Shown here piece by piece: positions 9,001-52,816 of a DNA stretch of 64,000 bases. A program made the translations under genes and the position numbers. This DNA comes from Chitinophagaceae bacterium (GTDB taxonomy: Bacteria > Bacteroidota > Bacteroidia > Cytophagales > JASGCU01). The DNA lies in NCBI GenBank assembly GCA_030053935.1, contig JASGCU010000001.1, forward strand, positions 14,738-78,737, written 5' to 3'. Each line of letters begins with the position of its first letter. The first letter of the stretch is position 1. The notes beneath the pieces were generated by a model. The model did no database searches, was not told where the DNA came from, and saw nothing but the letters and a program-made list of their open reading frames with translations.

Positions 9001-12000
9001 ATTTATCTTTCCAAGTAGCGATTTGATAGGAAGCATTCGTTTTGTTTGCGTTTATATCTCTTCCATCAAGCCATAGAACAAGGTTATTATGAATTATTTT
9101 AGGGGTTATAGTAAATGGAGCTGTATTGAGAGTAAGGATATAATTTTTATTGAGTTTGGTTTCTGTAGTATCTATGGTAATAGAATAATTTCCTATTGGA
9201 GATGTTTTTATAGCGGTAGAATGTGCTTGTGGTAATCTACCTAAAGCGGATAGTTTGAGGGAATCGAAAGGGTTGATGGTATTGTATTGGATAGTAAATA
9301 GAGGGTTTTCTTCGTTAAATTCTTTTGTTTTATTATCAGGAGTAAGGGTCAGGTTTCGTTTTGTTATAGTGAGGTCAGAAGGTATATAATAGAATTCATA
9401 ATTCGTTGCTCTGGCATCTGATACTCTGACAGAGTCGTTATAAGTACCTACTTCAAGGGTAGAATCGGCGTATGTTATTGTAGGAGTAGTGGTGATGGCA
9501 GAATTGTTATCTGTAATTCCGTTGATAGTTTTAAATCCATTATAGGTAATAGAGGGGTTTGATGATGGTGTTTTATTTCCATAAATGCGAGATATGTTTG
9601 GAATGGTAACGGTAAGGATTGCTTTGTTGATAGTAAGAGTTCTTGTAACAGGTATTGCAGCGTTATACTGAGAGTTTCCTGTTTGAATAGCCGTTATGGT
9701 GGTAGTTCCAGCGGATAAAATTTGAATAAAATTACCGTTGTTATTTATAATTCTGATTACTTGGGTATTAGCATTGGAGTAAGTTACAGTAAGAGAAGAA
9801 CTGGCAGTTGCATTGAGTATTTTTAATCCATCTCCATAAACAAAGCTTGTTGGGAAGGTAAAATCTATAACATTTGATAATCTATTATTTACTACAAGGG
9901 TTCGGTATACGGGGGGAGCAGCTTTATAGTTATGGTTTCCTGTTTGAGTAGCTGTTATGGTTACGGTTCCGGGGTCTACAAGGGTTAGAGTAGAGTCGTT
10001 TATGAATCTTGCTATGTCTGTATTAGAAATGGAGAACATTATTTTGAGTCCGGAGGTAGTAGTAGCTGGTATAATAAAATCAGGGTCAAAAGGGTTTTTA
10101 TGAGCGAGTGCGGGAAATACAATAGTTTGGATAGCAGTGTCAATAGTTAATATTTGAGTAAGAGAAACGGAATTTGCATAGTTAGTTGGATCACCTGATA
10201 TAAGAGCGGTAATATTTACTGTGCCTGCTTGTTTTATTTTCACAGTATCGGTGTTTATAGAAGCGATAAGGGTATTATGGCTGGAGTATACAACCTTTAG
10301 GAGTGATGAGTTAGCTGTAGATTGAAGGATAAAAGGATTGTCTCCATAGGTTTTTCGTATATCTAAGAAAGCCAGGGTGAGTGTTTTTCTAAGAATATTC
10401 ATTGTGTATACAAGTGGTGTTGCAGATGCATAGTTTGCATTACCTGTTTGGATAGCAGTTATACTTGCCGTACCTGCTCCTAATATACGAATGGTATCCG
10501 CACCGATTCTTAATACTGAGGTGTTTGCAGATGAGAAAATTATAGGGAGCGAAGCATTATAATTATTAGGAGATGTAAGATTTGCGTTTATTATGAAGGG
10601 TGCATCTTCAAAGGTTTTTTGAGGAATGAATGCGATATTTATACTTTGTGAGTTTTTAGATACAGTAAATGTATGAGAAACTGTTTGGGAGGAGGGGTCA
10701 TAATTATTTCCTCCGTTATGAGTAGCATATATTGTAAATATTCCTGCATTCAAAATGGTTGCATTCACACTTGTAACCCCTGCTGCGGTGTTTATATATG
10801 TAGAATCATTTGAAAATACTATATTCGTATTTGATGATGAATATGTAATAGGTAGCTGAGCGGAGGAGAGAGCATTGAAAGTGATAATATTATTATTATC
10901 ACCAAATGTTCTGTTATTTATAGTAGCAAAAGAAAGTGATAATACCCGTGGAACTATGGTTACTATTTGAGAAACAGAATTTGCTGCCGATACATTGGTA
11001 TTGCCTGTTTGGGTTACAGTTATCAGGGTAGTTCCTATGGATAGTATTTGGAGATGGTTTGTGTTTATAATATTTCCTACTAAAGTATTGCTACTGCTAT
11101 ATATAAGAGGTAATCCGGTAGGTTTTGTAATATGGGAATATTGAGTAATTGCGGATAGTGTGAATATATTATTATTATTTCCGTAAGTTAATACAGGAAT
11201 ATTTGTGAGAGTAATTGTTTGATTTGCTTTGCTTATGGAAAAAGTTCGGATTTCAGGGGTAGCGGCATAAAAATCATCTGTGCCATCTACGGAAGCAGTG
11301 ATGTTTACGGTTCCTATTTCTGTTATTTGTAGAGAATCTGTTTGGGAAGGGGTTCCAAAGTTATTTGTAGTTATGAGAGATCTTTCGGGATGAGAACTTG
11401 TGAATCTTATGGGGAGAGATGATGATGAGGTCGCTTGGAGTAGAAATGCATTATCTCCATAAGTTTTATGTAAAAGATTAGGGAAATGTATGGATTGGGA
11501 TTTTTTGAAAATAACTAAGGGTTGGTTGAAAGATGATGAAGCGGGATTGTAGTTATCTCCTCCATTGTAGGAAGCGGTGATGATAGTTGTTCCTGATTTT
11601 ATAATATGTATGCTGTCATTACTTATAGAAACAATGGAAGAGCTGCTCGTATAGGTAAGCGAAAGAGATGGATTTATGCTTACGGTAGTAATTTTAAATG
11701 TAGGATCTCCGATAGTTTTGTTCGGTAATATTCCAAAGCTGAATACTACTGATTTTTTGCTGATGGTCAGTATTTGTCTGATAGTATCGGAAAGTATATA
11801 ATTTTCGTCTCCTGTATGAAAAGCAGATATTATTACGATTCCATTACCTCTTATTTGGATACTGTCTTTATTATTATTCCTGAAAATAGAAGCAATATGA
11901 GTGTTAGAAGAACGGAAAGAGACGGACAAAGGAGAAGAAGCAGAGGCAGAGAGGGGTATATTATTATCTCCAAAAGTATAGAGTAATGGTATAGAAGTAA

Positions 12001-15000
12001 ATTGAATGGTTTGCCCTGCTTTGTGAATAGTAAATATTCGGGTAATAGCTGTAGCAGGATTATAAATATTGTTTCCACTTTGATTTGCTGTAATGTATAC
12101 GGTGCCTGCTTTTAGTATTTGAATACTATCTACGGTTATTATTTTTGCGATTGTTGTATCCCCACTGGAATATGTTATAGGAAAATCTGCTATTGGTAGT
12201 ATTGTATTGGTTGAATCTACTGAGAAAGCAGTTAATTTCCATGTTCTATCTCCGAATGTTTTTATAGGGAGTGGTGCAAAACTTATACTTTGGAAGTTTC
12301 CATTTTGGACAACAAGAACTTGTGAACGTGCAATAGAATCATAATTTTGATTTCCTGTATTATACGCTGTAATAGTTACTGTTCCTAAACTGATAGTATG
12401 AACTACGCTGTCTTTAGTAATAGATATGTTTCCTTGAATAGAAGGGTTTGTAACATATTTTACTCTTAATCCTGCATTAGTAAAGCGAGGAATAGTATAG
12501 TTTACACCTGGTTTTAGAAATATATTTACAAAAGAGGGTATTCCATTTGCGTCTGGTATTGTTTGTTGTTTTTTATGGATGGTTAATATTTTCTGAGTAC
12601 TGGTGCTAATAATATTGCTATCTCCTATGTAGTATGCGGTAACAAGACAAGTTCCTGCGGACAGTATTTTGATAGAATCTACTTTTTGAAATTGTCCTGA
12701 TATGGTTCTTATTTGGATAAGGGTAGAGGAAGAACTGTATAAGACAGCAAATCCATTATTATTAGATACTGTATTTGTCTGCAGCGTATCGGAGCTTATA
12801 GAAGCAGTGAGAGGAAATGAAACATCGCCGTAGGTTTTTTGAGGAAGAGAGAATGCTATAGTTGGGGTATATTTTTTTACAAATATATTTTTTGTGGCAC
12901 TCGCTGTGTCATAATTTGAATTTTCTGTAATACGGGCAGTGAGTTTGAATAACCCTATTCCCTTTATGAAAATACTATCTCTTTTTTTAGTAGTATTTCT
13001 TAAAATTTCTGCTATTGTTTTGGAGGTAGAATAAGAAATAGTAAGTCCATTATTCTGCATGGATGGATTGGTTAGAAGAGATGTGGTTTGTAAATTTATG
13101 GGAGCAGTTCCGAAAGTAACCGTATCGGGGGTGTTTAATATAATAGTTGGTCTATTTTTGCTTATAGTCATTATTCTGATAACAGCAGTAGAGTCATAAT
13201 TTGTATAAGATATGTTATATGCGGTTATCTGTACGGTTCCGGTTCCTATAATTTTGAGAGTATCTGTGGTATGAGATTGTATTATTTGTGCTATGCTTGT
13301 ATTAGAACTTATATATTTTACACGTAGAATGGTATCCTGTATAGAAGATGGATTGGCTGTAATAGAGGCGGTGAGTTTGATAGGAGTATCTCCAAAAGTT
13401 TTAGAAGATGGAAGGTTAAATGTTATAGAAGGTGTATTTTTTTTTATTATAAGAGTTCGTTTTGTATACCCTGGTCTAACAGTTGCATTTCCTGTATTAA
13501 ATGCAGTTATGACAGTAGTTCCGGCGTTTTGGATTATGAGAGAATCTTGTGGTGTATTTGTTCCTCTTATTTTGACAATATTTGTGTTACTACTGCTGAA
13601 ATATACGGGAAGTGCGGAATTGGAAGTAGCAGTTATTTTAAATTGTGTCATTCCAAAAGTTTTTGGAGAGATTGAATCAAAGGTGATTATTTGAGCATCA
13701 TACTCTTTTCCGATAGTAAATACTCCGAAAGAATTAGGTTTTGGTGCTATTCTGTAAGATATAATGTTATTAACCGTATCTATATTTGTTTCATTATTTT
13801 TAGCACTTATTACTTTTACGCTATCATCACTTTCGTTATTATATCTTATTAATAATTTATATCGGGAATTGAGAGAATCTATTTGAGAGTAGATATTGAG
13901 AGTGAGAGAATCTATACTTCCTTTATGTTGAAAGCCATGATTTTTTTGAGACAGTTGGTAATATTTATTTCCTAAGGTTACAGAGCTTGTTCCTATTGCA
14001 TCTGTTGTAGATATCAGAGAGCTATCGCCCCAGAAGAAATATTCTCCATTTTGAATATTTAAAATATTATTTACACGAACGGAGTTTGTCCCTCTCGCAT
14101 CAGTAACGCTATCTATTGCTTCTTTTCCGACTCCTACTACGTTATAATCAAAATTTCCTTTGGTGCTGTTATCCATTTGGTATATATCTACGTTAGAAGT
14201 AAGAGCTGTATTATATTTAGCAGCAAGGTAATTCCAAAGGATATTTTGTTCAGCGGATGAGGTAGCATTATTTCCAATAGCACGATTATACATTATGATT
14301 TCATAAATAGTTCCATCCCATCGGGCAAGGTTAGAGGTGCTAACACTTTCTCCTATTTTAAATCTAAAAGAAGCTCCTGTTGCTATAGTAGTGTCGGCTC
14401 TGTAGGTGCTTATTCTATTTGTATTTCCATTAACAGAAAATAGTATATTTTTATTGAAAACAGTGGACGAAAGTACTGCATTTTGATCTGTTGCAATAAG
14501 AGGAGAGTTATTGTCTGCTATATTTTGGGTTTTTGAAAAATAGTTATATTTACCGCCTGTTTGTCCCATTCCGAATGCTACGGGAGTAGTTGCAGCATTG
14601 CCGTATTCTACGGATACTTTCTTGTTATTTGTAATAGTTCCTTTTACTGCTATAAACATACTCTTATTGGATGTTCCTAATGGTATTCCATTAAAAGTAG
14701 AGAGAGTAAGGACATGAGATGAAGAACTTGTAAAATTAACTCCTCCGGTTATTCTATTATTAGAAGTCGGGGTAGATGTTCCCGTTGCATTATTGCTTCG
14801 TCCTGATTTATCTGTCCATGTACTTATAGATTGGAGAGGTGTTATATCTCTTCCATCTAACCATAATATTACATCTGATCCTGAATTTCCAATAATACCG
14901 ACTCCTCCGGGTGATCTGGTAATATCTGATATAGTAAGAGTTCCCGTGCTTTTAGAAAGAACAAAAGTATAGTAAGGGTTTGTATAAGAATTTGTGGTAT

Positions 15001-18000
15001 CTAATGTTATACTATATGTTCCAATAGGACTCAAGAAAGTAGCATTTGTACTTATCGTTGGTTTTATGGCTAATATTGTGTCTATATCGTTATTTTTAAA
15101 TCCTGCATAAGTATAAGTCAGAATAGGATTATTTACTCTTACAAAACGTGTTTTATCGTCTACGGAAATAGAAAGACGGGCTTTTTGAATAGTAATAGTT
15201 GCTTTTATTGTATCAGAAGCATACACGGTACTACCTGTTTGAATACCAAGTATGGTCACTGTTCCATTCTTTTTTATTTTCAAGGTATAGTCTACAGCAG
15301 TTCCTTTGGGAGGGCTTATAGATACTATGTTTGTATCTAAAGCTATAATAGTAGAAACGGGTAGACCTGTAGAAGATACGTTGAGATTAGTAATAGGAGC
15401 ATCTCCGTAAGTTTTTACGGAAGGAATATTCACAAAAGTAAGAGTTTGTTTTTTTAATAATTTGCCTATACTGAATACTCCGTAAGAATTGGGAGTTGGA
15501 ATAAGTTTATATGTTATAAGAGAATCATTTCCTAATCTATTAGCTTTGATAGAAACAAGGTTAGCAGAAAGAGTAGTATCGTTTTGAGAAAGGAGTAGTT
15601 TATAGGTAGTATCTATTTTTGTGCGATTTGTTTCAAATGTGAAAAAGATGCTATCATTTCCTGTTCCGATTTTATTATATGCAAAAGTTCTCTTTAAAAG
15701 ATGATATTTTTGAGTTCCTATTTTTGTTTCTTGGAATGTATCTTTTTTATTATTATCTCCGTATATAAAGTAGTTATTGTTTTGCAGAGCATCCGAATTT
15801 GAATATACAGCTCTTACTTTGCTGCTTCCCTTTACGTTTAAGAGTGTTTGGTTATTTTCTTTTCCTATTCCTGTAACATTATAGTCATAATTTCCTCTCG
15901 TAGTATCATCCATAGTATATATATCTTGAGATGATAACAAGAAATTATATTTTGCAGAAAGGTGGTTAGAAAGGATGTTACGTTCTACAACATTGATATC
16001 TCTATTTATTAAAATAATTTCTTTTATAGTTCCATTCCACGATTGGGTTCCATTAAAATAACTTCCAAGTTTAAGTGTATCTTTTGTTTGGCTTACAAAT
16101 GTGGATCCTACTTTTGTATTATCATGGTATAATAATGCGGAATCTGCAGCAGATATTACTCTATAAGCGTAGAGAAGGTGATTGGTAGCAAGGGTAGAGT
16201 TAGCCGTGATTTTCAGATCTCCACTTCCAAAGAAAGCCAATTTATCATCTTTCTTTCCGAGGGAAAAACCACCACCTCTTTGGGATACTCCGAAAGATAG
16301 TATATATCTTTCTCCGATTGTTCCATCAGTATTGTTTATAACGGCTAAAAGAGATCTCTTCGCTCTATTAATACTTGGAATATTTGGCATTTGATATGAT
16401 TTTCCGTCCGTAAATAAAAGTCCTCCGTTCGCAGAGTAAGTAGCTTGTTTTGATGCATTAGTTTGAATAGCATCGAAACCTTTTCCTGACTTGTCTTTCC
16501 ATATCTCTACAGGGTTGTTGGGTGTAAAAGTATTTCCATTTCCGTTTATATCATGCCCATCAAGCCAAATCGATACATCACCATCTATTCCTATATTTCC
16601 CACTCCTGCTAATTGTCCATAGTTATTAGTAATAGTGAGAGTACCTGCGGGATTCGGGAGTATAAGATTATAATTCTGTGGTAGCTTTGTAGATATAGGA
16701 GAGGTAAGGGTTACGTTATACATTCCTGAAGGAGAGTATTGATTTGTATTTACAGACACTGTGGGTCTATTTTCCAAAGGAAGTTCTGTTTCATTATTTT
16801 TAAGTCCGTTATACAGCAGAGTGAAATTTTTATCTGTATTTCCTATAGGTCTTGTGACATTACCAACTGTTATAGTAAGATTTGCTTTTTTGACGGTAAA
16901 TATTTGAGTTACAGAGATAGCGGGGTTTGTTTTATCGTTTCCTTGCTGTGATATAGTAATAGTAGCAATTCCTGGGAACCTTACTATCGCTATATTGGAG
17001 GAAAAAGACACAACATTTGTGTGAGAACTGGAATAAGTAAGTAATAATCCTGCGGAAGAAGTGGCATTACAATAGTAGGGATCGGTTCCATATTCTTGTG
17101 TTAAAGCTGCAACAGGAATAGGAGTTATAGTTTGTGGTATTTTCGTGACTACGAAAGTTTTTGATACACTCAAAGCAGGATAAAAACTTGTATTTCCTGA
17201 TTGCATAGCGGTAATAGTAAATGTTCCTACTTTGCTTATAATTGCCGTATTCCCTTGTATAGAAGTATTTCCATCAGAAGAACTATAAGATATGTCCAAT
17301 CCAGAAGAAATAGATGCATTCAAAAATACTACTGCATCATTAAATCCATTCGGGAATGTTGTGTTTGCTATGTTTGAAAATGTGATACTTTGGAATTGTT
17401 TTCCCGAAATTATTTCTATAGTTTGACTTTGTGTAAAAGGCAAATAGTATATATTTTCATTTACATTTGCGGTAATACTGACAGTTCCTACTCCTGCACC
17501 AATCTGGACTGTATTGCCTGTAACAAGAGCAATATTTGTGTTAGAACTATTATATACTACGGGTAGTCCTGAACTTGCAGAAGCAGGGAGTACTTGCTTC
17601 TGAACATAATTTAAGTTAAAATTGACACTTTGGTACGACCTAAATATTCCTATATTTGTTATCTGATAAACGGGCAAGTAATTTGTATTTCCTGTTTCGT
17701 ATGCGGTAATACTTACTATATTAACAGGGGCTTGGATTCTAAATGAATCTCTGACTATTACTATTTGAGTGGCAGAAGAGCTGTATAGAATAGGGAGACC
17801 TGAATTTTTATACGGTGCTGTAAGTACTGCTTGTAGTTTTGTATATCCTCCGGTAGAAAATATATCTGTACTATTAAAAGTAATTATTTGGGATGATTTA
17901 TGTACTCTTAATAGAACACTATCTCTTACCGAAAGGTATGTTCCATTTCCATTTTGAATAATATGTATATAAGTAGTTCCTACATTGTTTATGTTCAAAG

Positions 18001-21000
18001 TATTCTGAGAGATTGTTGCCACAAGGGTATTTCGGGAAAAATAGCTGACCGCTAATCCCGATGATGACTGTCCTTCTAGTTGTATAGATGGTTCTCCATA
18101 AGTATGGTCGGTAATAAAATTATTAAAAGCTACTGTTTGAGGGGTTGACCCTGCTGTTTCCCTTCCTATAGTAAATACACCGCTTGTAAGGGTTCCAAAG
18201 TCCACATTATATCGGATACTATCTGTAAATATATCTGTATGAGAAGGGTTTATAACTGTTACACTTACTCCCGAATTGAAAGCCTTTGCAGAAGTGATAA
18301 CAAGATTATCATTGGCAGTAAAATTATATCCCGTGATTCTAAATGTTATAGTGATATTTCCTATCCCTGTATTTGATACTCTGCGTTGGTTAAATCCGTA
18401 GCTGCTATTGAGAAGGTTAAAAGTTCTATTATCTGCAAAAGTAGTGCTGGTTCCGGTTGCTAAAACAGGAGGGGTTACATTATCAGTAGTAGCACCACAA
18501 AAAAAGTAAGTTCCTGTACCTGCACTATTTATATTTGGAACAGAAACAGATAAGACACCAGGGCTTTGGGTTCTGCTCACAAAATCTATGGAAGATTCTC
18601 TTCCTACACCTATCACATGAAAATCGTAATTACTCCCCACACTATCCATAGTATAGTAATTATTACCTATTTCATCTGTATTGTATTTAGCGGCCAAGTG
18701 GTTAGATATGATATTTCTTTCGGTATGATTTATTGCTCTATTATAGAGTATTACTTCTCTAATAGAACCTTGCCATAGTCCGGCATTACCAAAAATATCA
18801 CCCGATTCTGGAGTTAGCCTCTCTCCTATGAAGTAGGATCTATTAAGGTTTGTATTGTTTGCTCGGGTTCTGGTTCCTATAAGGTTATTTGCTACATACA
18901 CTGGTGTAGAATTACTGGTATTTACTATGGCAGCTACTATAATATTATTAGTACTGGAAAAAGCAGTAGAGACAAATCCATTATCTAAGCGTGGGCAACC
19001 ATACATCGACGGTTCGGGTATAGAAAAGCCTATCCCGGCTGCATAAGATGTTCTTTTTCCTATAAAAAAAGCAGTTGATGTAAAACAATCTTGTCCATCG
19101 TATCCATACACAAAAGCAGCTCTTCCACCAGTGTTTCCCTCTATTCCTGTATTTGTGCTATTAGCTACCACAAAAGCAGATCTTGAGTTTCCACCACCTG
19201 GGAATCCATTCACACTCCCTGAATAACTACTAGATATAGAAACCCCCCCTCCATTACTTATTAAATTATTAAAATTTCCTCCTCCCGTAGCATTATTTCC
19301 TCTTCCTGATTTATCTCTCCATGTACCCACTGATGTTCCCGCTGTAGGATTGGTATTATTTGCATTTATATCTCTCCCGTCTAACCAAAGAACTATATCT
19401 GTGTTTGTTCCTCTATTTCCTATTCCTCCCGGTCCTGGTCCTGTGTTATTTGTAGTAATAGCTGAACGAATATTAAGTGTTCCATGAGTAAGGGATATGG
19501 TATAATAAGGGTTTGCATTTTTGAATCCCGATACCGTATCTAATCGTATAGTATAATTTCCAATAGGACTGGTAGTAATTGCAGTAGTAGTTGCAATGGG
19601 TGGGAAATTAATTGTTTGGTTACCTAATCCTGTATAGGTGATAGTAAAAGTAGGATTTGCAGTCCCTTGTATTTTGTTCAAATTATCAGCGGTTATACCG
19701 AGTACTTTACGGCTAATAGTAAAAGTACGAGTAATTGAAACTGGAGTATATGCCACACTTCCGCTCAAAGTAGCTGTGATAGACACTGTTCCCGTGCCTC
19801 TTATGGTTGCTATATTGTTATTTAAAGATACAATAGTATTGGAAACAGAAAAGGTTATAGGGTTACTGTTAGAAGAATAGGTCTGAAGTATAAAATCAGT
19901 ATCTCCGTAGGTCTTGTTGAGGATACTTGCAAAAGTAAGGGTCTGAGAAATTCCTTTCGTTCCTATACCCAATACCCCCTTTTTATATATACTATCTCCG
20001 TTAAGAGTAAATGTTATATTCTGAGGAGTTGCTTGAGATGGTTTTATTATCTGAAGTCCTTGTGATTGTAGTGTTTTATCTTTAAAGAGAAAAAGGCGCC
20101 ATGAGGTATCTGTTTGTGAAATATTAAAAGTAAGATCTATCGTACCAATATTTCCTGTTCTTTCGTATGCTATTTTTCGTGGTATAAGCAAGTAGGAAAT
20201 AGAAGGTAATAATTTAATACCCGATGTTTGAGAAGAGCTATCATTATCCGCCCAAATAAAATAATTTTTAGAGCCAACAAAAGCATCTTTTTTTTCTACA
20301 CCGAGTATCCCTGTTCCTATAGAAGAGAATATTTCTATGTTATTTTCTTTTCCAATACCTGCTAAATTATAATCATAGTTTCCACTATCAGGTTCATCAA
20401 GGGTATAGAGGTCATTTGCATATAGTTTTGTTCCATATTTTGAAGAGAGATAATTGGTTATTATATTTTCTTCTACTGTGTGTAAGGATCTATTAAATAC
20501 AAGCGCTTCTCTCAAGTAGCCGTTCCATTCTTTTAAGCCTATTCTAAAATGAGTATTTCCAGTATTATTAATGATACTGGTGTTAGTAGAATTATTATCT
20601 AATGAAACTGTTATATCATTATTGTTATGTGCTATTCCTTTAAATAAATGGTCAGAGTCATCTAATTCAGCAAAATCTGTATAGTTATTTCCATTAAAGA
20701 ACACGAAATTATTTTGTGTTCCATTATTTTTAATACCAAAAGCACTTACTCTTTTTGAAGCCTCGCTGGTATCACCATAAGAAAAAAGATATTGAGTCGA
20801 TTGAGGGAAGAGTTCTTGAGTTTTTCCTACTATAAAAAGAGATCTTGCATTATTACCTGTAGGGATTCCATTATTTCCAAAGTCATAATAATCATTATTT
20901 CCATCAAAGAGAATACCACCTTTTTCATTCAAACCCATTATATATCTTCCTCTATTGTTGATGTTATTTTGAATGGCATGATTATTTCTTCCTGATTTAT

Positions 21001-24000
21001 CTGACCATTGAACAATATAAGTAGATAAAAGAGATGCATTTTTTAATATTTCTCTCCCATCTAACCATAAAACAACATCATTATAAGTTCCTAATGTGCC
21101 TATTCCTGCAGGTCCATTTGGAAAAGATAGAGTTAATATCCCAGATACGGGGGTAATATTATATTTGTTAGAGTAGAAATTATTACTGTTTACATCTATA
21201 GTATACTGTCCATTTTGAGAAATATCAACGGGTGAATTAACGGTAGCAAAAGGGATATTTATATTTCCTAATGTTAAAATATTATCATTATTTTTAAAAC
21301 CTGTAAAAGAAATAATATATTTTGGAGTCGTTCCTTTGTTGATAGATATATCTTCTGCTTTTGCTACAAGGTTTGTTTTTACTACTTGAATTCCTATTGT
21401 TACAGGTGGTATGGCTTCGTAAACCGCATTACCCGTATTAGATACGGTAACAGTTGCTATTCCGCTACCATTAGTTTGGATAGAATTATTTTGGATAAAA
21501 ACAACACTTGTATTATTAGAGGAAAAAGAAACTGGTAACCCTGCACTTGTTGTTATATTAAGAGGTATAGGAGTATCTCCATACATCATATTAATATTAT
21601 GAGAAGCGAGATTATATGTTTGAGTTCTTTTATGTACGGTAAATACAACACTATTTGAATTACTACTATAGTCTATCCCATTTGTTTCGTAATAAGCAGT
21701 TATAATAGTAGTTCCTCCTCCAATAATTTTCATTGTATCTATTGTTGTTCCATGTATAGTAGCTACTTGTGGATTAGAAGAACTATAGAAAACAGGAAGA
21801 GAGGAAGGGATTATGGAAGCGGCTGTAAGTTTCACCGGGAGTATATTTGCACTATATGTTATAGAGTTCAGTTGATTGCCTCCAAAAGTAATAGGAGGAA
21901 TAATAAGATTATTTATATTAATAATAAGTGCTGTATGAGGTGTTAGTTGACTATAATTGGCATTCCCTGGTTGATAAGCAATAATAGTAGCTGTCCCTGC
22001 TATCCCTTTAAAAAGAACCGTACTTCCAGAAATCAATACTAAGTTTGTTGCAGATGTGCTGTATGTTATGGGGAGTCCTGCATTTGTAGTACTGATGAGT
22101 GTATAAGGGGCTGTATTGCTCGCATTTCTATATATTGTGGTGAGAGGAAATGTGAGAGATTGGTTGGCTTTATTTATGAGAAAAATTCTGGATACTGGGG
22201 ATGCGGCCGCGGTATCCGGACGTCCTGATTGTGTAGCTGTTACTGTTACTTGTCCTATTCCTAAGAGTGTAAGAGTATTACCGATAAGAGAAGTAACCCC
22301 AGACGCTGGAATAGATGATATAGAATAAGAAACGGGTAATCCAGAAGAAGCAGATGCATGTAATGGTATAGAACCACTTCCATACTGCCGAGACGCTATA
22401 GGAGAGAAGGTTATTGTTTGTGGTATAATCGGTTTTGCTAGGGCAAATATTCCGGAACTTGCTGTTGTATTTATTTTGTATTCTATTTGATATATATTAC
22501 TATTTTGAATATTCGGTTCTATTACTACGACATTATTACTACTAAAAGTAGTATCTGTGCTATTTGGATAGAGTAACAATTTGTAGTTGTTTGGGTTTGT
22601 ATTATTTACATAAAATACAAATGTTATTTCTCCCATGTAGGTGGTTTGGTTAAACCCATATTTTTTATTCATAAGAGCGTAGGGTATATTGCTAATAATC
22701 GTTTTTTGAGTATTATCAATATTAGTAGATCTATCATTTTCTCCCCATATAAAGTACCCATTGTTGGTAATTTGTGGCACCGATACTAATAAGATTCCGG
22801 ATCCTTTAGTATTCGTAACGATTTCTGTGGCAGAGTTTCTTCCTATACCCGCAACATGAAAATCAAAATTTCCTCTGACAACATCGTCCATACTATACAA
22901 ATCATTCGTTATAGAAAAATTATATTTTGCGGATAGATAATTGGCTATTATATTTTGTTCTACTGTGTTAACTTCTCTATTATATAAAATAAACTCACGA
23001 ATAGACCCTTTCCAAAACTCGGTTCCCCATACATTATTTCCTAATCTAAATGTTGTAGTACCTGTATTGAAATTTGATAATGCTGTTCTATATGCATTAT
23101 CAAAATTGTAAATAATATCTCCAGCTACAGTATTTGACATGTTTGCTTGGAACAAGTGATTATTGATGTTCGCATTATCTGTAGCATGGTCATTCTGCCA
23201 CCCAATAAAACCTAAACTAGTGGGATATTTCCCAAAACCAAAATGCTGAGATTGGGCAGATACTCCTCCATATGCATTAAGCCATCTATATACTGATTCA
23301 TTTATATCATTTGTATGCGCAACTATAAAAAGAGATCGAGCGGAAGTTCCGGTAGGAAGTCCCGAATTGCCCATGGGATAGTTATCATTACTACCGTCGA
23401 ATAACAATCCTCCTCCGTTGTTTGCGAGAGAAATAAATGTTGCTTGGTTTGCAGAAGTAGATTGCGTAGCATTATTTCCTCTTCCTGATTTATCCGTCCA
23501 TGTGGAAACAGATACTCCATTACTTGGATTTGTAGCATTTCCATTTATATCTCTCCCATCTAACCAAAGGACCAAATCATTATTTGATAAAACACTTCCT
23601 ATTCCTCCTGGTCCATTGGTGTTAGAAGTAATCGTAAGGGTTCCGGATGGATTGTATGTATATCTATATGCCAGAGTAGAAGCATTATTTAATCCCGAAG
23701 TATCTATAAAAGTAATGGGATATGTACCAATGGATGAATTGGTATTAGCAGTTGTAGTGAGATTGGGTCTTTGAATTCCTAAACTATATACATTATCATT
23801 CCATACAAATCCCGAGTAAGATATTGTCAAACTTGGGTTAGAGGTATTGACATACTTAGTTTTATTATCAGGGGTTACGGTAAGGAGTGCTTTTTCCACT
23901 GTAATCACTATGTTAATAGTAGTGGGAAAATAATTTTCATTACCTGATTGTATAAGAGATATAGTAGATGTGCCTACTCCTACCATGTAAAAATTATTTT

Positions 24001-27000
24001 GATTGATACGGACTACATTTGTCTGTTGGGATACGTAAGAAATTGGTAGACCTGATGTAGCAGATGCATTTAATACTACCTGATTTCCGTATGTTTGTTG
24101 GGATGATAAAGAGAATTGTATTGATTGTGGTTTTAATACTTTTATTATGGTAAAATATCCTGTGGGTAAAGATACTGTTGCATTATAGGTAATACTTGTG
24201 CTATTAAAACTTGTGGGGGTAATGGTATCGTAATTTGATAGGTCTTTTTGTGAGCTTATGAGTAGTAGGTATTGGGAGTTGAGATTGGGAATATAGAATT
24301 GAAAGCTTATGTTTTTACTTCCGTTTTTATTACTAAATGCAAATTGTTTATGAGTGGATAAAAAATGGGTAGTTTGTGAATTTTTGGTTACGGAAATATT
24401 TGAAAAATCTGTAGATAAATTATTATCTCCCCATATAAAATAAGAATTTGGAGAAAGAAGATCTCGTGAGGTTATGTGAGCAATACTTGTTCCTTTAGCG
24501 GATAGTACAATTCCATCGTTTTCAGCACCAATACCAGCTACATGAAAATCAAAATTTCCATTGGATGGTTCATCCATAGTATAAATATTCTGTAGTGGTG
24601 CCTCAGTATTGTATTTTGCAGAAATATATTCTTGAAGTATATTTTGTTCGGTGCTATTTAATGCCCTATTATAAATAAGGACTTCGTATATTTGTCCTCT
24701 AAAGAATTGATTGGGGATTGTATTATCTAAAACTCCTAATCTATACATACTATTAGGAAGAGTAAGAAAAAGGGAAGTGTTTATATTTTGTGAAGTATTT
24801 ATAAAACTACCATTTCCATTATTCATCTTCCATATAGCTATTTGAGGTGTTGCTAATTTTATAGAAGATACAATACTAGTGGTACCTCCTCCAAAAAAAG
24901 AAAGATTTTGAGAGGTATCTATACCCAATCCTACAAGGTTATTTGAGGTATTCGTTCCATAAGCCAAAGCATATTGAGAAGAGGTAATCTTTTTAATATT
25001 TGTATTTTTCAGGGCAATAAGTATGGTTCTATTTTGATTAGAAACAGGAATAGCATTAGATCCAAATTCATAAAAATTGGTGCTCCCGTTAAACAAAAAC
25101 CCTCCCTCATTTCCATTTGAACCTGCAAATAGAGGAACTTGATTAGTTTGGGTTGCATTATTATTTTTATTAGATTTATCTTTCCATTGATACACAGGGG
25201 TAGAAGCGGATGGATTTTCTCCGGTTCCAAAAATATCTTTTCCGTCAAGCCATAATACTAAATCTTGAGAAGATCCTATCCCTGCAGGGCCATTAGGATT
25301 TACAAAATTTAAAGTTCCCGATTGGATAATAAAAAAATAATTTTGAGAAGAAAGGTTATTTGGTATATTTACATCTATTTGATAAGAACCATTGGTAGTA
25401 ACAGGGATAGTTGTTGTTACAAGCGGTTTTGGATATATAATTTCTTCCCCATCGGAGTATTTAAACCCTGAATACGATACAGTAAATAAAGAATTATTAG
25501 GAATGGAAGTAATTGTTTTATCGTCTGCTTTTATTGTTAATGGGGCTTTATCTATAGAAAAATATCTAATAATGGGGTATGCAGGCGAGTATTGATTTGC
25601 TCCTGATTGATATGCAGTAATAGGGATATTATTACCTGCTCCTCTTATAGATAGAGTATTTGAATGTATAGAAATGAGAGTACTAGAACTAGAAAAATAC
25701 ACGGGTAATCCTGAAGAAGTAGATGCTATAAGGATAAAAGGAGAATCGCCGTATACTTTATTATTGATTCCTAAAAATGTTATATACTGTGTGTTTTTTG
25801 TAATATTTAAAATACGGGTAGTGGAGCTGGATAGATAATTTGTATTCTCAGGGTAATAAGCAGTTATGGTTACAGTTCCCCCTTCGTTTATTTTTATTGT
25901 GGTATCGATTTGTGTGGTTATTACTTGTGCAATATTGGTATTAGAACTGCTATATAAAACAGGAAATACTTTCCCATCAGAAGTATTCGCTTTTCCGTTA
26001 ATACGAAAAGGATCATCCCCAAAAGTATGGTTTGTTATCCCTGAAAATGTTACTGTACTCAAATATTTACTGGTTATTATGAGTGTTTGAGTAATAGGGT
26101 CAGCGGGATTATAATTGGCATTTCCTGTTTGTTGTGCGGTAATGGTAGTAGTAGCTGGTGGTGTGCCTGTTATTATTATGCTATCGTTAGAATTAACAAT
26201 TCTTGCTATCATAGGCAGAAAGTCCAATGTATATTGAATTGGTAATCGGGAACTGGCAGTAGGTTTTACATTATAAAAGCTTCTATGAAGGATAGATAAA
26301 ATGGGTACGGTTCCAAAATCAATAGTTTGGTTTGCTTTTACAACAGTAATTGTTTGGGTTACATTTTGTGATGAATAAGATGCATTTCCTGTATGGTATG
26401 CAGTAACAGATGCAATACCTGAACCTTGTATTCGTAAAGAATCGGGAGATATAATAGAAACTACAGATGTATTACTACTAGAAAATAATAAAGGGATGCC
26501 GGATACCGTACCTGTTATACTGAGTTTTATGTTCTTATCTCCGTATGTTTTCTGTGAAATTATATTTGAAAAAGTAAGAGATTGAACAGCTTTATTTCTT
26601 ACCAAAGTAAAATAACCGGATGTTCTATTTCCTACATTTATATTTTGAAATTCTATAGTGGTAGAAGTTATATTAGTAGGAGAAAGAACCAAAGGTGTGG
26701 TAGAAAAAGTACTGTCCGCTGATAGTACTAATCTATATCCTGCATGAGTATTTCGTATAGTGAATAGCAAATTCATATTTCCAATAGATCCTGTTTGATG
26801 GAAAGCGTACGTTTTTACTAATCTGTTTTCATACAATGTCCCGATTACTGTTGTAGGAGTGTTTGTAAAAGTACTGTCTGCGGTGTTGTTTTCCCCCCAT
26901 ATAAAATATGTTCCGTTTGATGGTATATCTTGGGTTTTTGTTATTCTTAGAATACTTCTATGGGTTTGTACGGATAAAGATGTTTGATTTCCTGAAGCAT

Positions 27001-30000
27001 CTTTTCCTATACCCGCAACCTGAAAATCAAAATTTCCTCTGACAGCATCGTCCATACTATACAAATCATTCGTTATAGAAAAATTATATTTTGCGGATAG
27101 ATAATTGGCTATTATATTTTGTTCTGCCCCATTAACTATTCTATTATATAAAATAGCTTCTCTAATAGAACCTTGCCAATATTCACCTCCTATTCTGTTA
27201 TTTCCTAAACGAAATACTCCGCTACCGGTATTTAATCCTGTTGCATCAGATCTCACGCCATTATCAAAATTATATTTTGCCGTTCCCGAAACCATATTTG
27301 CATGGAATAGATGTATATTTGTATTTGCATTATCGGGAAACACATCATTTCCCCATCCAAAAAAACCTAATCTACTAGTTGATGTTTTTCCAAATCCAAA
27401 GTTTTTATTACCAGTACCAGCATTATCTCCATAAGCAAGTATATGTCTGTATCCCGAAGTACTTATATCATTGGTATGTGCAACTATAAAAAGAGATCGA
27501 GCGGAAGTTCCGGTAGGAAGTCCCGAAGTGCCCATGGGATAGTTATCATTACTACCATCAAATAAGAGTCCTCCTCCATTGTTTGCGGGAGAAATAAATG
27601 TTGCTTGGTTTGCAGAAGTAGATTGGGTAGCGTTATTCCCTCTCCCAGATTTATCTGTCCATGTGGCAACAGAAGACGATGCAGCAGGGTTTATACCATT
27701 TCCATTGATATCTCGTCCATCAAGCCATAGAATCAAATTGCTTGTACTCCCAGTAATATCGACTCCTGCAGGCCCATTTGTTACCGTAGGTGTTGGTAAT
27801 AATACTTCTAAAGTTCCCGTAGTTATAGAAGTAAGTTTATAATTAGGAACATTAGCTGTCCATCCCCCATTTGTGGTAGTGTCTACAGAAATAGTGTAGT
27901 TACCATTTACATTAGGATTTGCTGGAGTAGTGAAAAGAGTTGGTGTATATAGTATATTTACAAAAAGGTCATTATTTACAAATCCATTATATGAGTAGGT
28001 AAATAGAGGGTTAGGATTCGTTTGTATTTTTTGTTTATTATCCACCAGTATATTCAAAGATTGACGAAATACTCTCAAAGTATGAGTAACAGGAACAAAA
28101 AAATCATTTGTGTTAACGTAGGCAGTAATATGAGTAGTTCCTGCTCCATTTATTCTGATGGAATCTCCAAAAACACTGGCTATAGCAGTGTTAGAACTAC
28201 TAAATAGAATAGGAATCTCTGAACTCACACTGCCTGTGAGTCGGAATGATGCATTACCATAAGTTCTATGCGGTAATGATGAAAAACTAATATTATGAAA
28301 GGTGTTATTTACATTTCCAATATTTGTTGTGGTACCTGTTGAACTCTGTGCTACTGAAATAGTAGAATATTTTCCTAACACAAAATAACCTGTATCTATA
28401 CTATTAATAGAAGTCGAAAATACTATTTGGTTATTGGATACTGTAATAGGTTTTAGAATATTTGCATTTTCAAAATTTTGATTTTTACTGATGATTAATC
28501 TGTAAGTAGTATCTAAGTTAGGAATAGAAAAATGAAAGGTAAAATTATGAAATATTTCGGAAGAGTTTGCTTTATACTGTTGAAATCCATATTTTTTATG
28601 CATTATATAATATGATTTTCCATCAATGTTAGTAGTAGAGTTGGGTATAGTGGCATTTTCATTATTATCTCCCCATATAAAATATTTCTCATCTCCAGAT
28701 ACAAGAGGAACAGATACTCTTAATATTCCTGTTCCTTTACTTGTAATAAGGGTTTCTCCGTCTGTATCTATACCTATTCCTGCTACGTTATAATCAAAAT
28801 TTCCTCTATTAAGATTATCTAATATATAAAAATCTTTTGAAGTAAGCAATGTATTGTATTTTGCAGAAAGATTATTGAGTAGAATATTATAATCTATTTG
28901 TCTTAATACCGTATTGAAGAAGAGAACTTCATAGATGTTTCCATTCCAGAATTTTTGAGCAGTTCCTATTTCAGCACCTATTCGGAATGGAGAATTTACG
29001 GAAGTATTAAAACCATAGTTTTCATAACCCGATGAAAAACTATCTCCTATCTTTATATCTGTTCCGTTATTATTACCGTCTTCTGTAAGTGATAGTATTT
29101 CAAAGGTATTTGCTGCAATAGAAGTGTTTATATCTGTTCCACTATAAGCACCTGTAAAATAATTATTACTATTATTTTTACCCAAGAAAAAACCATTTCC
29201 TGATTGTGGAACTCCATAAGAAAGTGCTACCTCGTCGCCAGAAGTAATATTATTTTTTAAAACTGCTATAATGGTTCTTTCCCCTGAAGAAAATCCTTGT
29301 AAAGATGGCACTTCAAAATATTCTTGATTCGTTCTATCAAAATAGAATCCACCTAATGGATCTGCTAAGGTAGAACCTAATCCCGAACTATGTATCATAG
29401 CATGATTTCCTCTTCCTGATTTATCTCTCCATTGAGAAACGCTACTATAAGGAATAACTGCGTTACCATTGCCATGTATATCACGTCCATCAAGCCATAA
29501 TACTAAATTTTCTAAAGAGGTTCCTCCGATAGTAGTATTTCCTTCTACTACTCTATAAGTAGTATTTTCTATTACAATACTGTATTTACTACTTCTCAAT
29601 CCTGTAGTATCTACTTGTAAAGTATACGTTCCTATTCTAAAAGTATCTACCAAAGCAAAATTCGGAGTAGGTAAACGAGAGAGTGAATTATTTTGATTAT
29701 CTCCTGTTACAAATCCCGAATACGTAAATGTTTCTATAGGTCCGGCATGCCCCAATAAGTGATCAGACCCAACGACAGGAAATATATGTAATGTTTTTTG
29801 AGATACAGATAGATTTTGTGAATATTCTACGGGATAGTAACCAATATTTCCCGTATTGTATGCTGTTATAAGAGCTTCCCCTGCTCCAATAAGAGTAAGA
29901 GTATTTCCATTAATAGAAATAACTCTCGTGTTAGAAGTCGAATAGATGAGTGGTAAATTCACATCAGAATTCTGTGGGACTACAAGCGGAGATGCTCCGT

Positions 30001-33000
30001 ATGTAGTAGGATCGATAGAAAATAATACCGTTTGTCTTCCTTTATCTATATATAAAAGAAAGGATTGATTCAAAGGATTATAAGTAGCATCTCCGCTATT
30101 AAAAGCGGTAATAAAGGTACTTCCCGTGCTTAATATACGAATACTATCTTTTCCCAAAGAAGAAAATATCTGTGCAATGGTAGAAGAACTGCTAAAAGAA
30201 ATGAGTAAAGTAGAATTAGCAGTATATTTGAGAGCAAATATATTTTTATTTGCTCCGTATATTTTAGAGTTTGTAGTTTCATTATCAAAAGTGATTACTT
30301 GCACTGTATTATTTACCACACGAAGAGTTCTAGAAACTGATAATGCAGGGTTATAATTACTATTTCCTGTTTGAATAGCAGTGATAGTGCATGTACCAAC
30401 TGATGTAATAGTAATAGATGCTCCATTAATAGACGCAACTGAGGGATCGGAACTGGAATAACTTATAGGGAGACCAGAAGTACTGGTAGCATCCATTAAA
30501 AAAATTCCTTCCGATGTACTCCTATCTCTCAATTGAGGAAGAGAAATAGATTGATTACCTTTTACAACTGTCAGGGAAAAGGTAGTGTCTTTCATAATAT
30601 AGTTTATATCTCCATAATTATAAGCCGTAATAGTTACAGATCCTACTCCTGTAATTTTTATTTGATTTATGCCATTAACACATTGAACTATATTGGTATT
30701 AGAAGAACTAAAAGCAAGAGATAAAGGAGAACTGTTCGTATAGGAAACAAAGAAATTAGGATCTCCATACGTTTTTTGAGAAGGAGGGTTCCATACAATA
30801 TTTTGTTGTTGCTTAGAAACAAAAAGAGTTTGAGATACTGAAGCGGTATCATATATACTATTTCCGGATTGAAAAACAGTTATAGAAGTAGATCCACTTT
30901 GTAAAATAGTAATGCTCCCAGATGTATATATAGCAATTTTTGTATCCGAAGAATAATAAGAAAGTGCCAAACCACTATTAGTAGATGCGGTAAATAAAAA
31001 AGGTGTATCTCCAAAAGTTTTAGGACTAATATTAGTAAAACTGATGGTTTGAGGCAGTTTATCCACTCTTAAAATTTGAGAAACGGAAGCAGAATCATAT
31101 TGGGTATTACCCGATTGGGATACTTTTATAACAGTTGTACCAGCTCCATTTATAGCTATTGTGTCCGATTGAATACTGGCTACGTAAGTATTAGAACTAC
31201 TATATGTAAGTGGTAAAAAACTATCTGTGGTAGCACCTACTAAAAAAGGATTATCTGTAATTGCTTTTGAAATAATAGCAGGGAATGTAATACTTTGTTT
31301 TAATAGTGATTGAGATAGAACAAAAACACCAGTCGTAATAGAAGGATTATACACAAAACTTATTCGAGAAGTACCAACTATTGAAGGTTTAATGGCTACA
31401 ATATTCTGAGGAAGTGTGGTAAAACTGGTATCTATAGCACTAGAAATTAACAATCTATAAGCAGCAGATGGATTAGGAACTTCAAATGATATGGTTATCT
31501 GTCCTATATTATTTATATTATTAAAACCATATCTTCTCTCCATAAGGAAATATCCCGTGTCCCTTATCCTTACATTTCTATTGGTATTTATAGTGGTAGA
31601 TAAGTTATTATCTCCCCATAAGAAATAGGAGTTAGTATTACTTATACCAGCACTAGAAATAGTTACTATGCCCGTTCCTCTGGATATTCTCAAAGTATCT
31701 GTAGCACTACCAGCTCTTCCTATACCCGCGACATTAAAATCTAAATTTCCATTTCCTGGATTATCCATGGTATAAAAATCATTCGTTATAGAAAAATTAT
31801 ATTTTGCGGATAGATAATTGGCTATTATATTTTGTTCTGCCCCATTAACTATTCTATTATATAAAATAGCTTCTCTAATAGAACCTTGCCAATGTTCGGT
31901 TCCTGCTCTATTATTTCCTAAACGAAATACTCCGCTACCAGTATTTAATCCTGTTGCATCAGATCTCACATCATTATCAAAATTATATTTTGCGGTTCCC
32001 GAAACCATGTTTGCATGGAATAGATGTATATCCGTATTTGCATTATCAGGATTCACATCATTTGCCCATCCAAAAAAACCCACCTTATTAGCAGATGTTT
32101 TTCCAAATCCAAAATTTTTACTAGCACTACCAACGTTGTCTGCATAAGCAAGTATATGTCTGTATCCCGAAGTACTTATATCATTTGTATGTGCAACTAT
32201 AAAAAGAGATCTAGCGGAAGTTCCGGTAGGAAGTCCCGAAGTGCCCATGGGATAGTTATCATTACTTCCATCAAATAAGAGTCCACCACCGTTATTTGTG
32301 AGAGAAATAAATGTTGCTTGGTTTGCAGGGGTAGATTGCGTAGCATTATTTCTTCTTCCTGATTTATCCGTCCATGTTTGAACTGATGAATTTACTGTAG
32401 GATTGGTTCCATTTCCATTTATATCTCGTCCATCAAGCCATAGAATAAGATTTCCAGACGATCCCGTAGAACCTACCCCCGCAGGGGATAGAATTCCTGT
32501 TGTGATAAGTAGATTATTATTGAGTGGATATTCTACTATATAATTGAGAATATCTGCATCATTTAAATCGTTCCATTGATACGCATTCCCATTCCCACCA
32601 GGGTTTGCTGCGGGCCATCCTGCAAGTCCTATTGCTACAGATTTTTGACCTGATGGAGAATAGGTCGCATCTGTATAATTATCGGGTTCTTGATTTCCAA
32701 AATTTTGGTAAACAGAGTTAAAAGTACTTCCACGATTACCGCTTACATTTCCCTGCCAAAATTGACTTGTAGTAGACGAAATATTTCTTCCATCCCAATA
32801 AAAATTCCCTTGATTTGTCGACGTTCCTCTTCTACCGCCTGTCCATACATAACGAACTCCTCCACCGTCATTCGCTGTAGGATAAGAACTGGTAGTGATA
32901 CTTTGTAAATACGTTCTTATGGTGTCGTATTCTGCAGAAGAATTAATTTCTAAAAGCCGTCCTCCTCTACTGACAGCATCAGAGGATGCACTTGCCCAAT

Positions 33001-34690: not shown

Positions 34691-35674
34691 GTTTATTAAA
34701 AATATGTTTCTTTTCATTAGTTTTTTGTGTTTACTTTTTTGTCTTTGTGAAACTTAAAAAACAAAAAATCTCGAAAGGATAAAAAAATAATTATCTTTTA
34801 TTACATTTTCTATCTTATCTTACCCCAATCTATAAGCTTACTCACTTGATATCAAAAGTATTTTTCTTCTTAGGATGAAATAACAATGTACTCGAAAATG
34901 CTTTTTATTTCGTATTTATTTCCATAATTATTTATTTTTATTTTTTTACTAAAATAGTGTATTTTTACTTTATTTTATATAATGAGTCATATAACGATTC
35001 ATTTTGATGAAAATGTATCAATTTTTTTCTAATTTAGTTTTGCAACGGTCTCAATTTGGCAACTATTTGATTACCAATGGTTTTAAAACTTAATAGTTTT
35101 GTGAAAATGACTTTTCAAAATAGATTCATTGATTTAAAACATTTATTTTTGAATTTTCTACAGTAAAATCTTTTTTTGGATTTTATTTTTTTTACAAAAA
35201 TGATTAAAAACATTTTTTCTTCTAAACGAATTTATTATTTGTCTTTTTGTTTTAGTGATATACTTGTACCATTTTTATTTTAATTTTTGGTTAAATTAAA
35301 GAAAATACTAACAGAATAATATTTTTCACAAAGTACATGTTGACATTTTTTTTATTTTTAAGTTTTTTTAGATAATACATTCCTAAAATAATTTGAAATT
35401 ACAAAAAAAAGATGTCATCCGAACAGCAAGAATAGAAAAAAAATAAAAAAAACAGTTGAATCAGGATTAGACATATTAAACGAAGGGTAGCATGTATACG
35501 ACTCAAAAAGATATAAAACTCACAGGAAAACAAATACAAATTCTCTCTACGGGATGGAAAAATAAGCTTTCTGTTTCAAAAATTAGAGATACTTTGAATA
35601 CGTTATAATCTTAAATAGATATAAAAAACACCACAAAGGAAAAAAATTTAACCATCTTATCTTATATATACAAA

Positions 35675-36442: not shown

Positions 36443-36460
36443 GAGGGCTAAGTTATGTGA

Positions 36461-36484
36461 GTTCTAAAAATCAATTTTTAGAAC
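36461..36484. repeat. Abutting 11-bp inverted repeats GTTCTAAAAAT-CA-ATTTTTAGAAC
   Basis: Near-perfect palindrome read directly. The same 11-mers bound a 104-bp element at 42570-42673. Confidence 0.6.
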
Positions 36485-36489
36485 CCGCC

Positions 36490-36618
36490 TTTGTACAAGG
36501 TAAACAAAACAGATATAAAATAGAACAAAACAATTCAAATACAAGACATTATTTATCTATAATGGCAAGACGAACAAAAGTAGTTAGTAAATCAATTATG
36601 ATGTTTGATATAAATTAA
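36490..36618 (+). pseudogene. IS1-family transposase C-terminal remnant (~40 codons)
   Basis: The frame reads GKQNRYKIEQNNSNTRHYLSIMARRTKVVSKSIMMFDIN*. This aligns position by position with the IS1 InsB tail as I remember it (IER.N..LRQ.L.RL.R+T..FSKS...H). No intact upstream catalytic region is present. Confidence 0.4.
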
Positions 36619-36676
36619 GAATTGTTTGGGCTTTGCATGAAAGTATACTTTATATAACGAATTTCAAAAAATATTT

Positions 36677-37606: not shown

Positions 37607-37632
37607 AATTATAGAAATAATTATTATTGCTA

Positions 37633-40113: not shown

Positions 40114-40121
40114 ATCCTTCT

Positions 40122-52814: not shown

Positions 52815-52816
52815 TT

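Follow-up and report, generated by a model that had tools for sequence, protein, structure and literature searches.

Gene conversion and concerted evolution are documented in genes for bacterial surface proteins, such as the direct repeats of cagY (PMC2194252) and babA/babB (PMC5483490) of Helicobacter pylori (reviewed in PMC4534519). Here we describe a related situation in a 64,000-nucleotide (nt) stretch of DNA from a Chitinophagaceae bacterium (contig JASGCU010000001.1, positions 14,738 to 78,737, GenBank assembly GCA_030053935.1; hereinafter the window, to which all coordinates refer). Its minus strand carries a giant gene for a protein with an array of lectin-like modules, and the first, third and fifth of these (M1, M3 and M5) share long tracts of nucleotide identity. 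The patterns of divergence make it quite probable that repeated, short, presumably non-reciprocal gene conversion has occurred among M1, M3 and M5, which lie in the same orientation and frame, 4.2-4.7 kb apart. We take it to be one more instance of an established process, concerted evolution by intragenic gene conversion, and neither a new mechanism nor a new kind of system.

The likeness to cagY and babA/babB lies in direct in-frame repeats as recombination substrates, mosaic alleles, differences between strains and preservation of the reading frame. However, the repeats here are whole lectin domains of ~256 aa, placed 4.2-4.7 kb apart with diverged modules between them, and they show no length change, whereas recombination in cagY chiefly deletes or duplicates repeats (PMC2194252). 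Unlike H. pylori, the host is an uncultured environmental Chitinophagaceae without known immune pressure. A second comparison is offered by the Periscope Proteins (PMC8201768), which are likewise long, repetitive surface proteins where similarity between domains at the DNA level is expected to permit intragenic recombination. While their arrays consist of adjacent tandem, highly identical repeats that vary in number between strains (PMC8201768), only three of the 12 modules are similar here, and these are non-adjacent, patchy in their identity (73-87%) and found in the same order in two strains. We rejected a Periscope Protein as an explanation, since a search with Tandem Repeats Finder recovered no tandem repeats in 1-33200 and there is no length variation between the two strains over the covered 10 kb of the gene. 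The cassette systems, exemplified by Neisseria pilE/pilS, Borrelia vlsE and Mycoplasma genitalium MgPa (PMC2169797), resemble our locus in the segmental copying, presumably non-reciprocal in our case, that yields a mosaic, surface-exposed binding protein. They depend on silent donors outside the expression site, with specialised cis elements or high switching rates (PMC2169797), whereas in our case donors and acceptors all reside within one open reading frame (ORF) and no specialised element was found. Cassette-type antigenic variation was thus set aside because there are no silent donors and all similar copies lie inside a single open frame. We also rejected a diversity-generating retroelement, as there is no reverse transcriptase among the Pfam matches of the neighbouring genes and the changes involve all four bases instead of being adenine-specific.

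The giant gene occupies a stop-free frame of 11,050 codons or more, which starts with an ATG at 33151, encodes an N-terminus resembling a signal peptide and continues past the window start. A second public contig of the locus (L001; European Nucleotide Archive (ENA) contig_6) shows the gene broken by 1-bp indels into four ORFs of 1996, 540, 147 and 12012 aa; together these calls imply a complete gene of ~44 kb encoding a protein of ~14,700 aa. Its counterpart there lies at 11435-21392, and dprA and like housekeeping genes are split in the same way on L001. As a result of these 1-bp indels, the database annotation of the giant gene is fragmented. The giant ORF ranks among the very largest bacterial ORFs. 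The gene and the module cores on which the analysis centres are as follows:

2..33151, minus strand: giant ORF with all modules (stop-free frame, start codon, MBG_2 and Laminin_G_3 matches)
31712..32479, minus strand: module 1 core, aa 225-480, predicted ConA/LamG-fold lectin-like domain, probable exchange participant (alignment, synonymous divergence (dS), AlphaFold2 (AF2) model)
26999..27766, minus strand: module 3 core, aa 1796-2051, mosaic hub with an M1-like centre and an M5-like 3' end (alignment, dS, recombination tests)
22835..23605, minus strand: module 5 core, aa 3183-3439, with two M1/M3-like blocks and a diverged central ~320 nt (alignment, dS)
28748..29536, minus strand: module 2 core, diverged control (~34% aa identity to M1/M3/M5; 1 substitution between strains)
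24503..25291, minus strand: module 4 core, diverged control (33-36% aa identity; 4 substitutions between strains)

Guided by a 'WLDG' motif, we recognised 12 ConA/LamG-fold modules in the part of the gene that falls within the window. The spacings of the first eight alternate between long (~830-980 aa) and short (~560-590 aa), which indicates an ancient two-module super-repeat present in four copies; M1, M3 and M5 hold the equivalent (A-type) positions in its first three units. The identity of all module pairs at the protein level is 28-42%, with the exception of M1-M3 (81%), M3-M5 (69%) and M1-M5 (67%), and outside the cores the super-repeat units are just ~30-40% identical. The original prediction, which had proposed ongoing gene conversion among modules 1, 3 and 5, numbered these correctly if counted from the N-terminus of this minus-strand gene, and rightly described the interleaved modules as strongly diverged: M2 and M4 display ~34% protein identity to M1/M3/M5 and to one another. 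What emerges is an old array of at least 12 modules with saturated synonymous sites, in which M1, M3 and M5 are the exception, their dS being 0, ~0.3 or >1 depending on the segment. The A-type slot of the fourth super-repeat unit is filled by module 7 (18638-19426, minus strand), which is 39-42% identical to M1/M3/M5, carries an insertion of ~14 aa (IPEPSMYGCPRLDN) and appears to be an A-type copy that was not homogenised with the others. We also observed a shift in plus-strand GC skew within this single ORF, from +0.21 to +0.37 at 1-14 kb to ~0 to 0.1 at 14-33 kb (apart from one window of 0.21 at 24-26 kb), with the AT skew differing between the two parts as well; the C-terminal portion of the protein must differ greatly from the rest in its codon usage or amino-acid composition.

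Pfam profiles detect MBG_2 domains and a marginal Laminin_G_3 (PF13385) match in the giant protein. For the latter, the score of M1 by itself is 14.2 bits, short of the cut-off of 27.6, while the N-terminal 5,000 aa reach 29.5 bits by way of the M2 region, the only one above the cut-off. PF26628 (DUF8202) is a precomputed label on the L001 gene fragment and on the three database homologues; we found no literature on DUF8202, PF26628 or the sample accessions. An AF2 model of M1 (predicted local distance difference test score, pLDDT, 79.9; predicted template-modelling score, pTM, 0.82) recovers trans-sialidase lectin domains, the PilC lectin module, the botulinum neurotoxin (BoNT) Hcn domain and C-reactive protein (a pentraxin) in Foldseek searches of the PDB, with E-values down to 7e-10 and template-modelling (TM) scores of ~0.55-0.60. 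On the strength of this model the modules are predicted to be beta jelly-rolls of the ConA-like superfamily, and the earlier label 'LamG module' holds at the level of the fold. Thus, the locus shares the predicted beta jelly-roll with the ConA-like lectin/LamG families (PF13385; PF26628), while differing in that the M1 sequence falls below the Laminin_G_3 threshold. The 224 aa that precede M1 (32480-33151, minus strand) give a sub-threshold match to Lectin_C (E = 0.004; 18.3 versus 22.6 bits), and the giant protein may therefore start with a putative second, unrelated lectin fold of the C-type.

The evidence for exchange begins with the identical tracts themselves. The two longest exact direct repeats of the entire window fall in M1, M3 and M5, and both were found exactly as originally predicted, each being a maximal match: 118 of 118 nt are shared by M3 and M1, and 80 of 80 nt by M5 and M3. 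The tracts that matter most below are these:

27063..27180, minus strand: 118-nt tract, M3 copy, dS = 0 versus M1 (exact repeat; segment IV)
31776..31893, minus strand: 118-nt tract, M1 copy (exact repeat)
27046..27125, minus strand: 80-nt tract, M3 copy, overlapping the 118-nt tract (exact repeat; segment V)
22882..22961, minus strand: 80-nt tract, M5 copy (exact repeat)
32213..32266, minus strand: 54-nt tract, M1 copy, identical to 27500-27553 in M3 (exact repeat; the short contig L002 ends within it at 32237)

As the two longest tracts overlap in M3, 27063-27125 is identical in all three modules, where 63 nt are common to 22899-22961, 27063-27125 and 31776-31838. Further exact tracts of 54, 48, 43 and 37 nt are likewise all among M1, M3 and M5. 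The offsets of 4713 and 4164 nt are multiples of three, so that the claim of in-frame spacing stands. Exact repeats of at least 20 nt are confined to the modules of the giant gene, and in ten mononucleotide shuffles of the window the longest repeat was 15-18 nt. The original prediction had further extended high similarity over about 650 nt of each module, which is borne out for M1-M3 (87% identity over the 768-nt core) but not for M5: the latter is 73-76% identical to M1/M3 overall, with two highly similar blocks of ~160 nt on either side of a central ~320 nt that is just ~60-65% identical. Codon bias can be ruled out as the source of the tracts: among the other 63 module pairs the same codon is used at 54% (standard deviation 5%) of identical degenerate residues, and from this baseline the probability of a match is ~4e-11 for 39 consecutive codons and ~1e-7 for 26.

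We also noted shorter exact identities of 23-30 nt, above the 15-18 nt of the shuffles, between modules of just 30-40% protein identity: 19286-19315 = 23465-23494, 19295-19322 = 29405-29432, 4317-4342 = 24420-24445 and, four-way, 8448-8470 = 22920-22942 = 27084-27106 = 31797-31819. They appear to fall on the most conserved motifs of the family, and may be due either to biased codon choice in invariant motifs or to micro-conversions over very short stretches.

We then aligned the three cores and their flanks by codon and computed Nei-Gojobori distances by segment. The resulting profile is as follows:

Flanks, outside the core: dS 1.18 to saturated (M1-M3), 1.23 to saturated (M3-M5), saturated (M1-M5)
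Segment I, M1 32479-32369 (equivalents 27656-27766 in M3 and 23495-23605 in M5): dS 1.04 (M1-M3), 1.20 (M3-M5), 1.11 (M1-M5); nonsynonymous divergence (dN) 0.24-0.45
Segment II, M1 32368-32210: dS 0.39 (M1-M3), 0.27 (M3-M5), 0.28 (M1-M5)
Segment III, M1 32209-31889: dS 0.25 (M1-M3), 1.34 (M3-M5), 1.06 (M1-M5)
Segment IV, M1 31888-31820: dS 0 (M1-M3), 0.46 (M3-M5), 0.46 (M1-M5)
Segment V, M1 31819-31733: dS 0.30 (M1-M3), 0 (M3-M5), 0.30 (M1-M5)

Rather than being uniform, synonymous divergence thus ranges from 0 to saturated within a single 768-nt core, and the exchanged material takes the form of in-frame patches of tens to a few hundred nt, with the middle copy, M3, sharing such patches with both neighbours. 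Segment I provides an internal control. Its protein sequence is conserved, yet its dS is 1.0-1.2, which shows that selection at the protein level in the giant gene does not preserve nucleotides and that protein constraint alone yields no nucleotide identity.

These observations bear upon the possibility that a module or a super-repeat unit was recently duplicated and then diverged under uneven purifying selection, without any conversion. Such a history would be compatible with the equivalent positions of M1, M3 and M5 in the two-module super-repeat, and with the fact that the motifs best conserved in the family are encoded where the three are most alike. However, in the flanks of the cores, which belong to the same units, synonymous sites are saturated, and segment I reveals that selection is not holding the nucleotides in place. 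A recent duplication of a whole unit is excluded by the low identity of the units outside the core, and if the 770-nt core alone had been overwritten from another module, that event would already count as a conversion. Moreover, M3 is closest to M1 in one part of the core and to M5 in another, a pattern that fits no single duplication tree. We therefore regard this explanation as highly improbable.

Three formal tests concur with the mosaic. A runs test on informative sites counted 73 runs against 109 expected (p < 5e-5). A GENECONV-type check, implemented as a Sawyer-type permutation test on the longest fragments, gave p = 0.001 for M3-M5 and 0.02 for M1-M3. In a 3SEQ-type random walk, M3 is recovered as a mosaic of M1 and M5 with p ~5e-5, while M1 as the child gives 1e-4.

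A further line of evidence comes from the second assembly. L001, together with L006, represents ENA ERZ26695264 contig_6 from a public Chitinophagaceae metagenome-assembled genome (MAG) and is 99.6% identical to the window. Other copies of the locus are short Logan contigs that are 99.99-100% identical, namely L002 and L007 (SRR23378605) and L008 (SRR23378604); exact-protein look-ups with three flanking genes gave matches limited to contig_6 and the short Logan contigs, and the NCBI protein matches of the neighbouring genes are MDI9355403, MDI9355406 and MDI9355411. No orthologue was found among the GTDB species representatives (best match 32%, in a Chitinophagales MAG), in JGI metagenomes (best match 29%) or in a database of 5.8 billion proteins (three matches, at most 45%), and the distantly homologous loci L003 and L005 contain no module pairs of comparably high identity. 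Over 23195-44579, L001 and the window are colinear save for nine 1-bp indels, several of them beside homopolymers, and the order of the modules is the same in both over 23195-33151, which covers M1-M4 and part of M5. Hence, a check for structural variants between the strains, which the original prediction had imagined as expansion, contraction or shuffling of the array, brought up only 1-bp indels. The substitutions between the window and L001 are distributed as follows:

Flanks, 11.4 kb: 5 substitutions (0.04%)
Giant gene outside M1 and M3, 8.4 kb: 27 substitutions (0.32%)
M1 core, 768 nt: 17 substitutions (2.2%)
M3 core, 768 nt: 26 substitutions (3.4%)
Control cores: 1 substitution in M2, 4 in M4
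M5, first 411 nt: 0 substitutions (100% identical between the assemblies)

The cores of M1 and M3 together hold 43 substitutions against 4.9 expected (Poisson p ~8e-26), i.e. 7-11 times the density in the rest of the gene. The 27 substitutions outside these modules comprise 14 synonymous and 13 nonsynonymous changes, as against ~24% synonymous for random error (p = 0.0016), an excess indicating that the assemblies derive from really different strains and not from sequencing error. L007, which corresponds to window 34999-42545, differs from the window at 36407 alone, a position where L001 shows no difference; the public data therefore include three or more closely related haplotypes.

The differences within the modules have a telling structure. 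Across alignment columns 385-398, seven sites separate the M3 of L001 from that of the window, while the M3 and M1 of L001 are identical there and share two alleles that are found in none of the three window modules. The same pattern recurs at columns 426-431, an unconverted site separating the two patches. The variant k-mers of L001 (18-69 nt) exactly match the other module of the window, while no donor in the window exists for the variants that lie outside the modules. Eight 'private' alleles among the module differences are shared with M5. Likewise, the sites that distinguish M1 from M3 number 100 in the window and 80 in L001. The tracts themselves have been remodelled: the 118-nt tract is split into 28 + 27 + 66 nt in L001, where new tracts of 69, 56 and 54 nt occur at other places, and those common to both assemblies include a 48-nt M3=M5 tract and 66 nt of the 118-nt tract. 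The argument from strains thus rests on the clustering, on the donor haplotypes and on two sets of alleles, the eight 'private' ones also present in M5 and the two novel ones common to M1 and M3 of L001. The word 'ongoing' in the original prediction is therefore supported: the differences of L001 cluster in M1 (2.2%) and M3 (3.4%), carry the haplotype of the paralog and place the tracts elsewhere. Taken together, the dS mosaic, the recombination tests and the second strain support its proposal of ongoing intragenic gene conversion.

The clustered differences might alternatively have been produced by allelic recombination, with divergent M1 and M3 alleles being imported from other strains. The substitution density of the giant gene, ~7 times that of the flanks, is what is expected of a surface-protein gene recombining between strains, and several clustered variants, e.g. 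those of L001 M1 at 32127-32138, have no donor in the window. Modules encoded in the ~11 kb of the gene past the window start could, however, have supplied the L001-specific patches at 32127-32138 and 27370-27381. However, the excess is limited to the two modules with similar paralogs, the controls M2 and M4 having 1 and 4 substitutions, and many of the variant patches are the haplotype of the other module, exact over 18-69 nt. Allelic import also leaves the mosaic within the genome unexplained, and would at most shift some of the events into the history of another strain. We consider it an unlikely, though not negligible, account of the strain differences.

The behaviour of the tracts in assemblies raises another concern. 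The Logan contig L002 matches the window at 100% identity up to its end at 32237. Within the M1=M3 tract 32213-32266, the first complete 31-mer is 32236-32266, and a k=31 unitig that enters from the unique side can therefore extend no further than 32237. The risk of short-read mis-assembly foreseen in the original prediction is thus seen in an actual contig, which breaks at the k=31 branch into the 54-nt tract. It could be argued that the tracts, the differences between the assemblies or both arose from reads of paralogous modules being merged or mis-mapped during assembly or polishing: identical tracts of at least 31 nt do break short-read graphs, as at the end of L002, the frameshifting 1-bp indels mark L001 as error-prone, both assemblies are derived from metagenomes, and a third haplotype is visible in L007 with its one mismatch to the window. 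Nevertheless, two independent assemblies resolve three distinct modules in the same order, with 80-100 M1-M3 differences and several shared tracts. Patches of intermediate dS (0.25-0.39) are not a product of collapse, and the two alleles common to M1 and M3 of L001 exist in no module of the window. Further, the enrichment of synonymous changes outside the modules means that the strains really differ, and the reading frame of the window is intact over 33 kb. An artefact is, in our assessment, very unlikely.

Finally, the tracts might be kept identical by constraint on the nucleotides themselves, imposed by an antisense gene or a promoter within the coding sequence or by an RNA element. We found antisense ORFs of 109 aa on the plus strand at 27105-27434 (in M3) and 31818-32147 (in M1), which could be taken in its favour. 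However, these ORFs mirror the repeat, M5 shares the tract without having an equivalent ORF of at least 100 aa, and there is no match to any Rfam family in the window. The tracts are also interrupted or shifted in the second strain, and constraint cannot switch the nearest paralog. The two ORFs are probably not genes, and we deem such constraint scarcely credible as an explanation.

Several points weigh against the proposal of gene conversion among M1, M3 and M5. A PHI-type (pairwise homoplasy index) test on five sequences, with few informative pattern classes, gave p = 0.86. There is no rise of GC at third codon positions (GC3) in the converted modules, i.e. no sign of GC-biased conversion. 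A binomial test on the sites where L001 has the base of the paralog (p 1e-10 to 1e-21) had to be withdrawn as flawed; it makes the case seem stronger than it is, since the same pattern would follow from a point mutation private to the window copy. The features of L001 fit a noisy long-read assembly, and in either assembly a consensus that is chimeric, or wrongly polished, across paralogs could look like paralog-templated change. The comparison comprises two strains, no orthologue from another species having been found. Lastly, any dependence on RecA, the polarity of the tracts and the direction of donation are matters of inference.

Accepting gene conversion among the three modules as the probable process, its course can be envisaged as follows. 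Stretches of perfect identity of at least roughly 25 nt would seed RecA-type strand invasion between modules, the pairing partner being presumably a module on the same or the sister chromosome. Heteroduplex formation followed by patchy mismatch repair would then copy tens to a few hundred nt, and the outcomes would be of the non-crossover type, leaving the number of modules unchanged. The similarity maintained in this way could sustain further exchange, such that M1, M3 and M5 would evolve in concert, whereas M2, M4 and M6-M12, lying below the pairing threshold, would drift apart; exchange that is sustained by similarity would hence affect M1, M3 and M5 only. The net effect would be that variants of the lectin domain are both homogenised and reshuffled among positions and strains. 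If the tracts instead underwent crossing-over, in-frame deletions or duplications of 4,164, 4,713 or 8,877 nt would result. Between the two strains compared, which have a common module order over 23195-33151, no such deletion or duplication is seen, nor any expansion, contraction or shuffling of the array.

Elsewhere in the window, the minus strand at 50454-57810 carries a gene cluster with matches to Oxidored_q6, Complex1_49kDa together with Complex1_30kDa, NADHdh and two Proton_antipo_M, i.e. of a complex-I/Mrp-antiporter-like composition; by its domain content it resembles a membrane-bound hydrogenase or Mrp-type module and may be one of these. The GC skew is strongly negative at 54-60 kb (-0.28 to -0.40).

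Concerted evolution by gene conversion is thus probably encountered here in an unusual setting, among non-adjacent whole lectin domains of a ~14,700-aa protein from an uncultured Chitinophagaceae without close public relatives. The locus is a clean natural example, in that it combines an internal control, segment I, with a turnover of tracts that is visible between two close strains. Short-read assemblies break at the tracts, and in the public MAG the gene is in four pieces; module-level variation in such genes can therefore be trusted only with long and accurate reads. It is conceivable, though we hold it to be improbable, that the three expressed modules act as cassettes for each other in a built-in shuffling of lectin binding-loop variants between positions and strains; examples of strain-variable clusters in M1 are aa 338-342, 353-357 and 373-374. 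If this were true, the ligand binding of an environmental Bacteroidota adhesin would be diversified without silent donor loci or dedicated enzymes.

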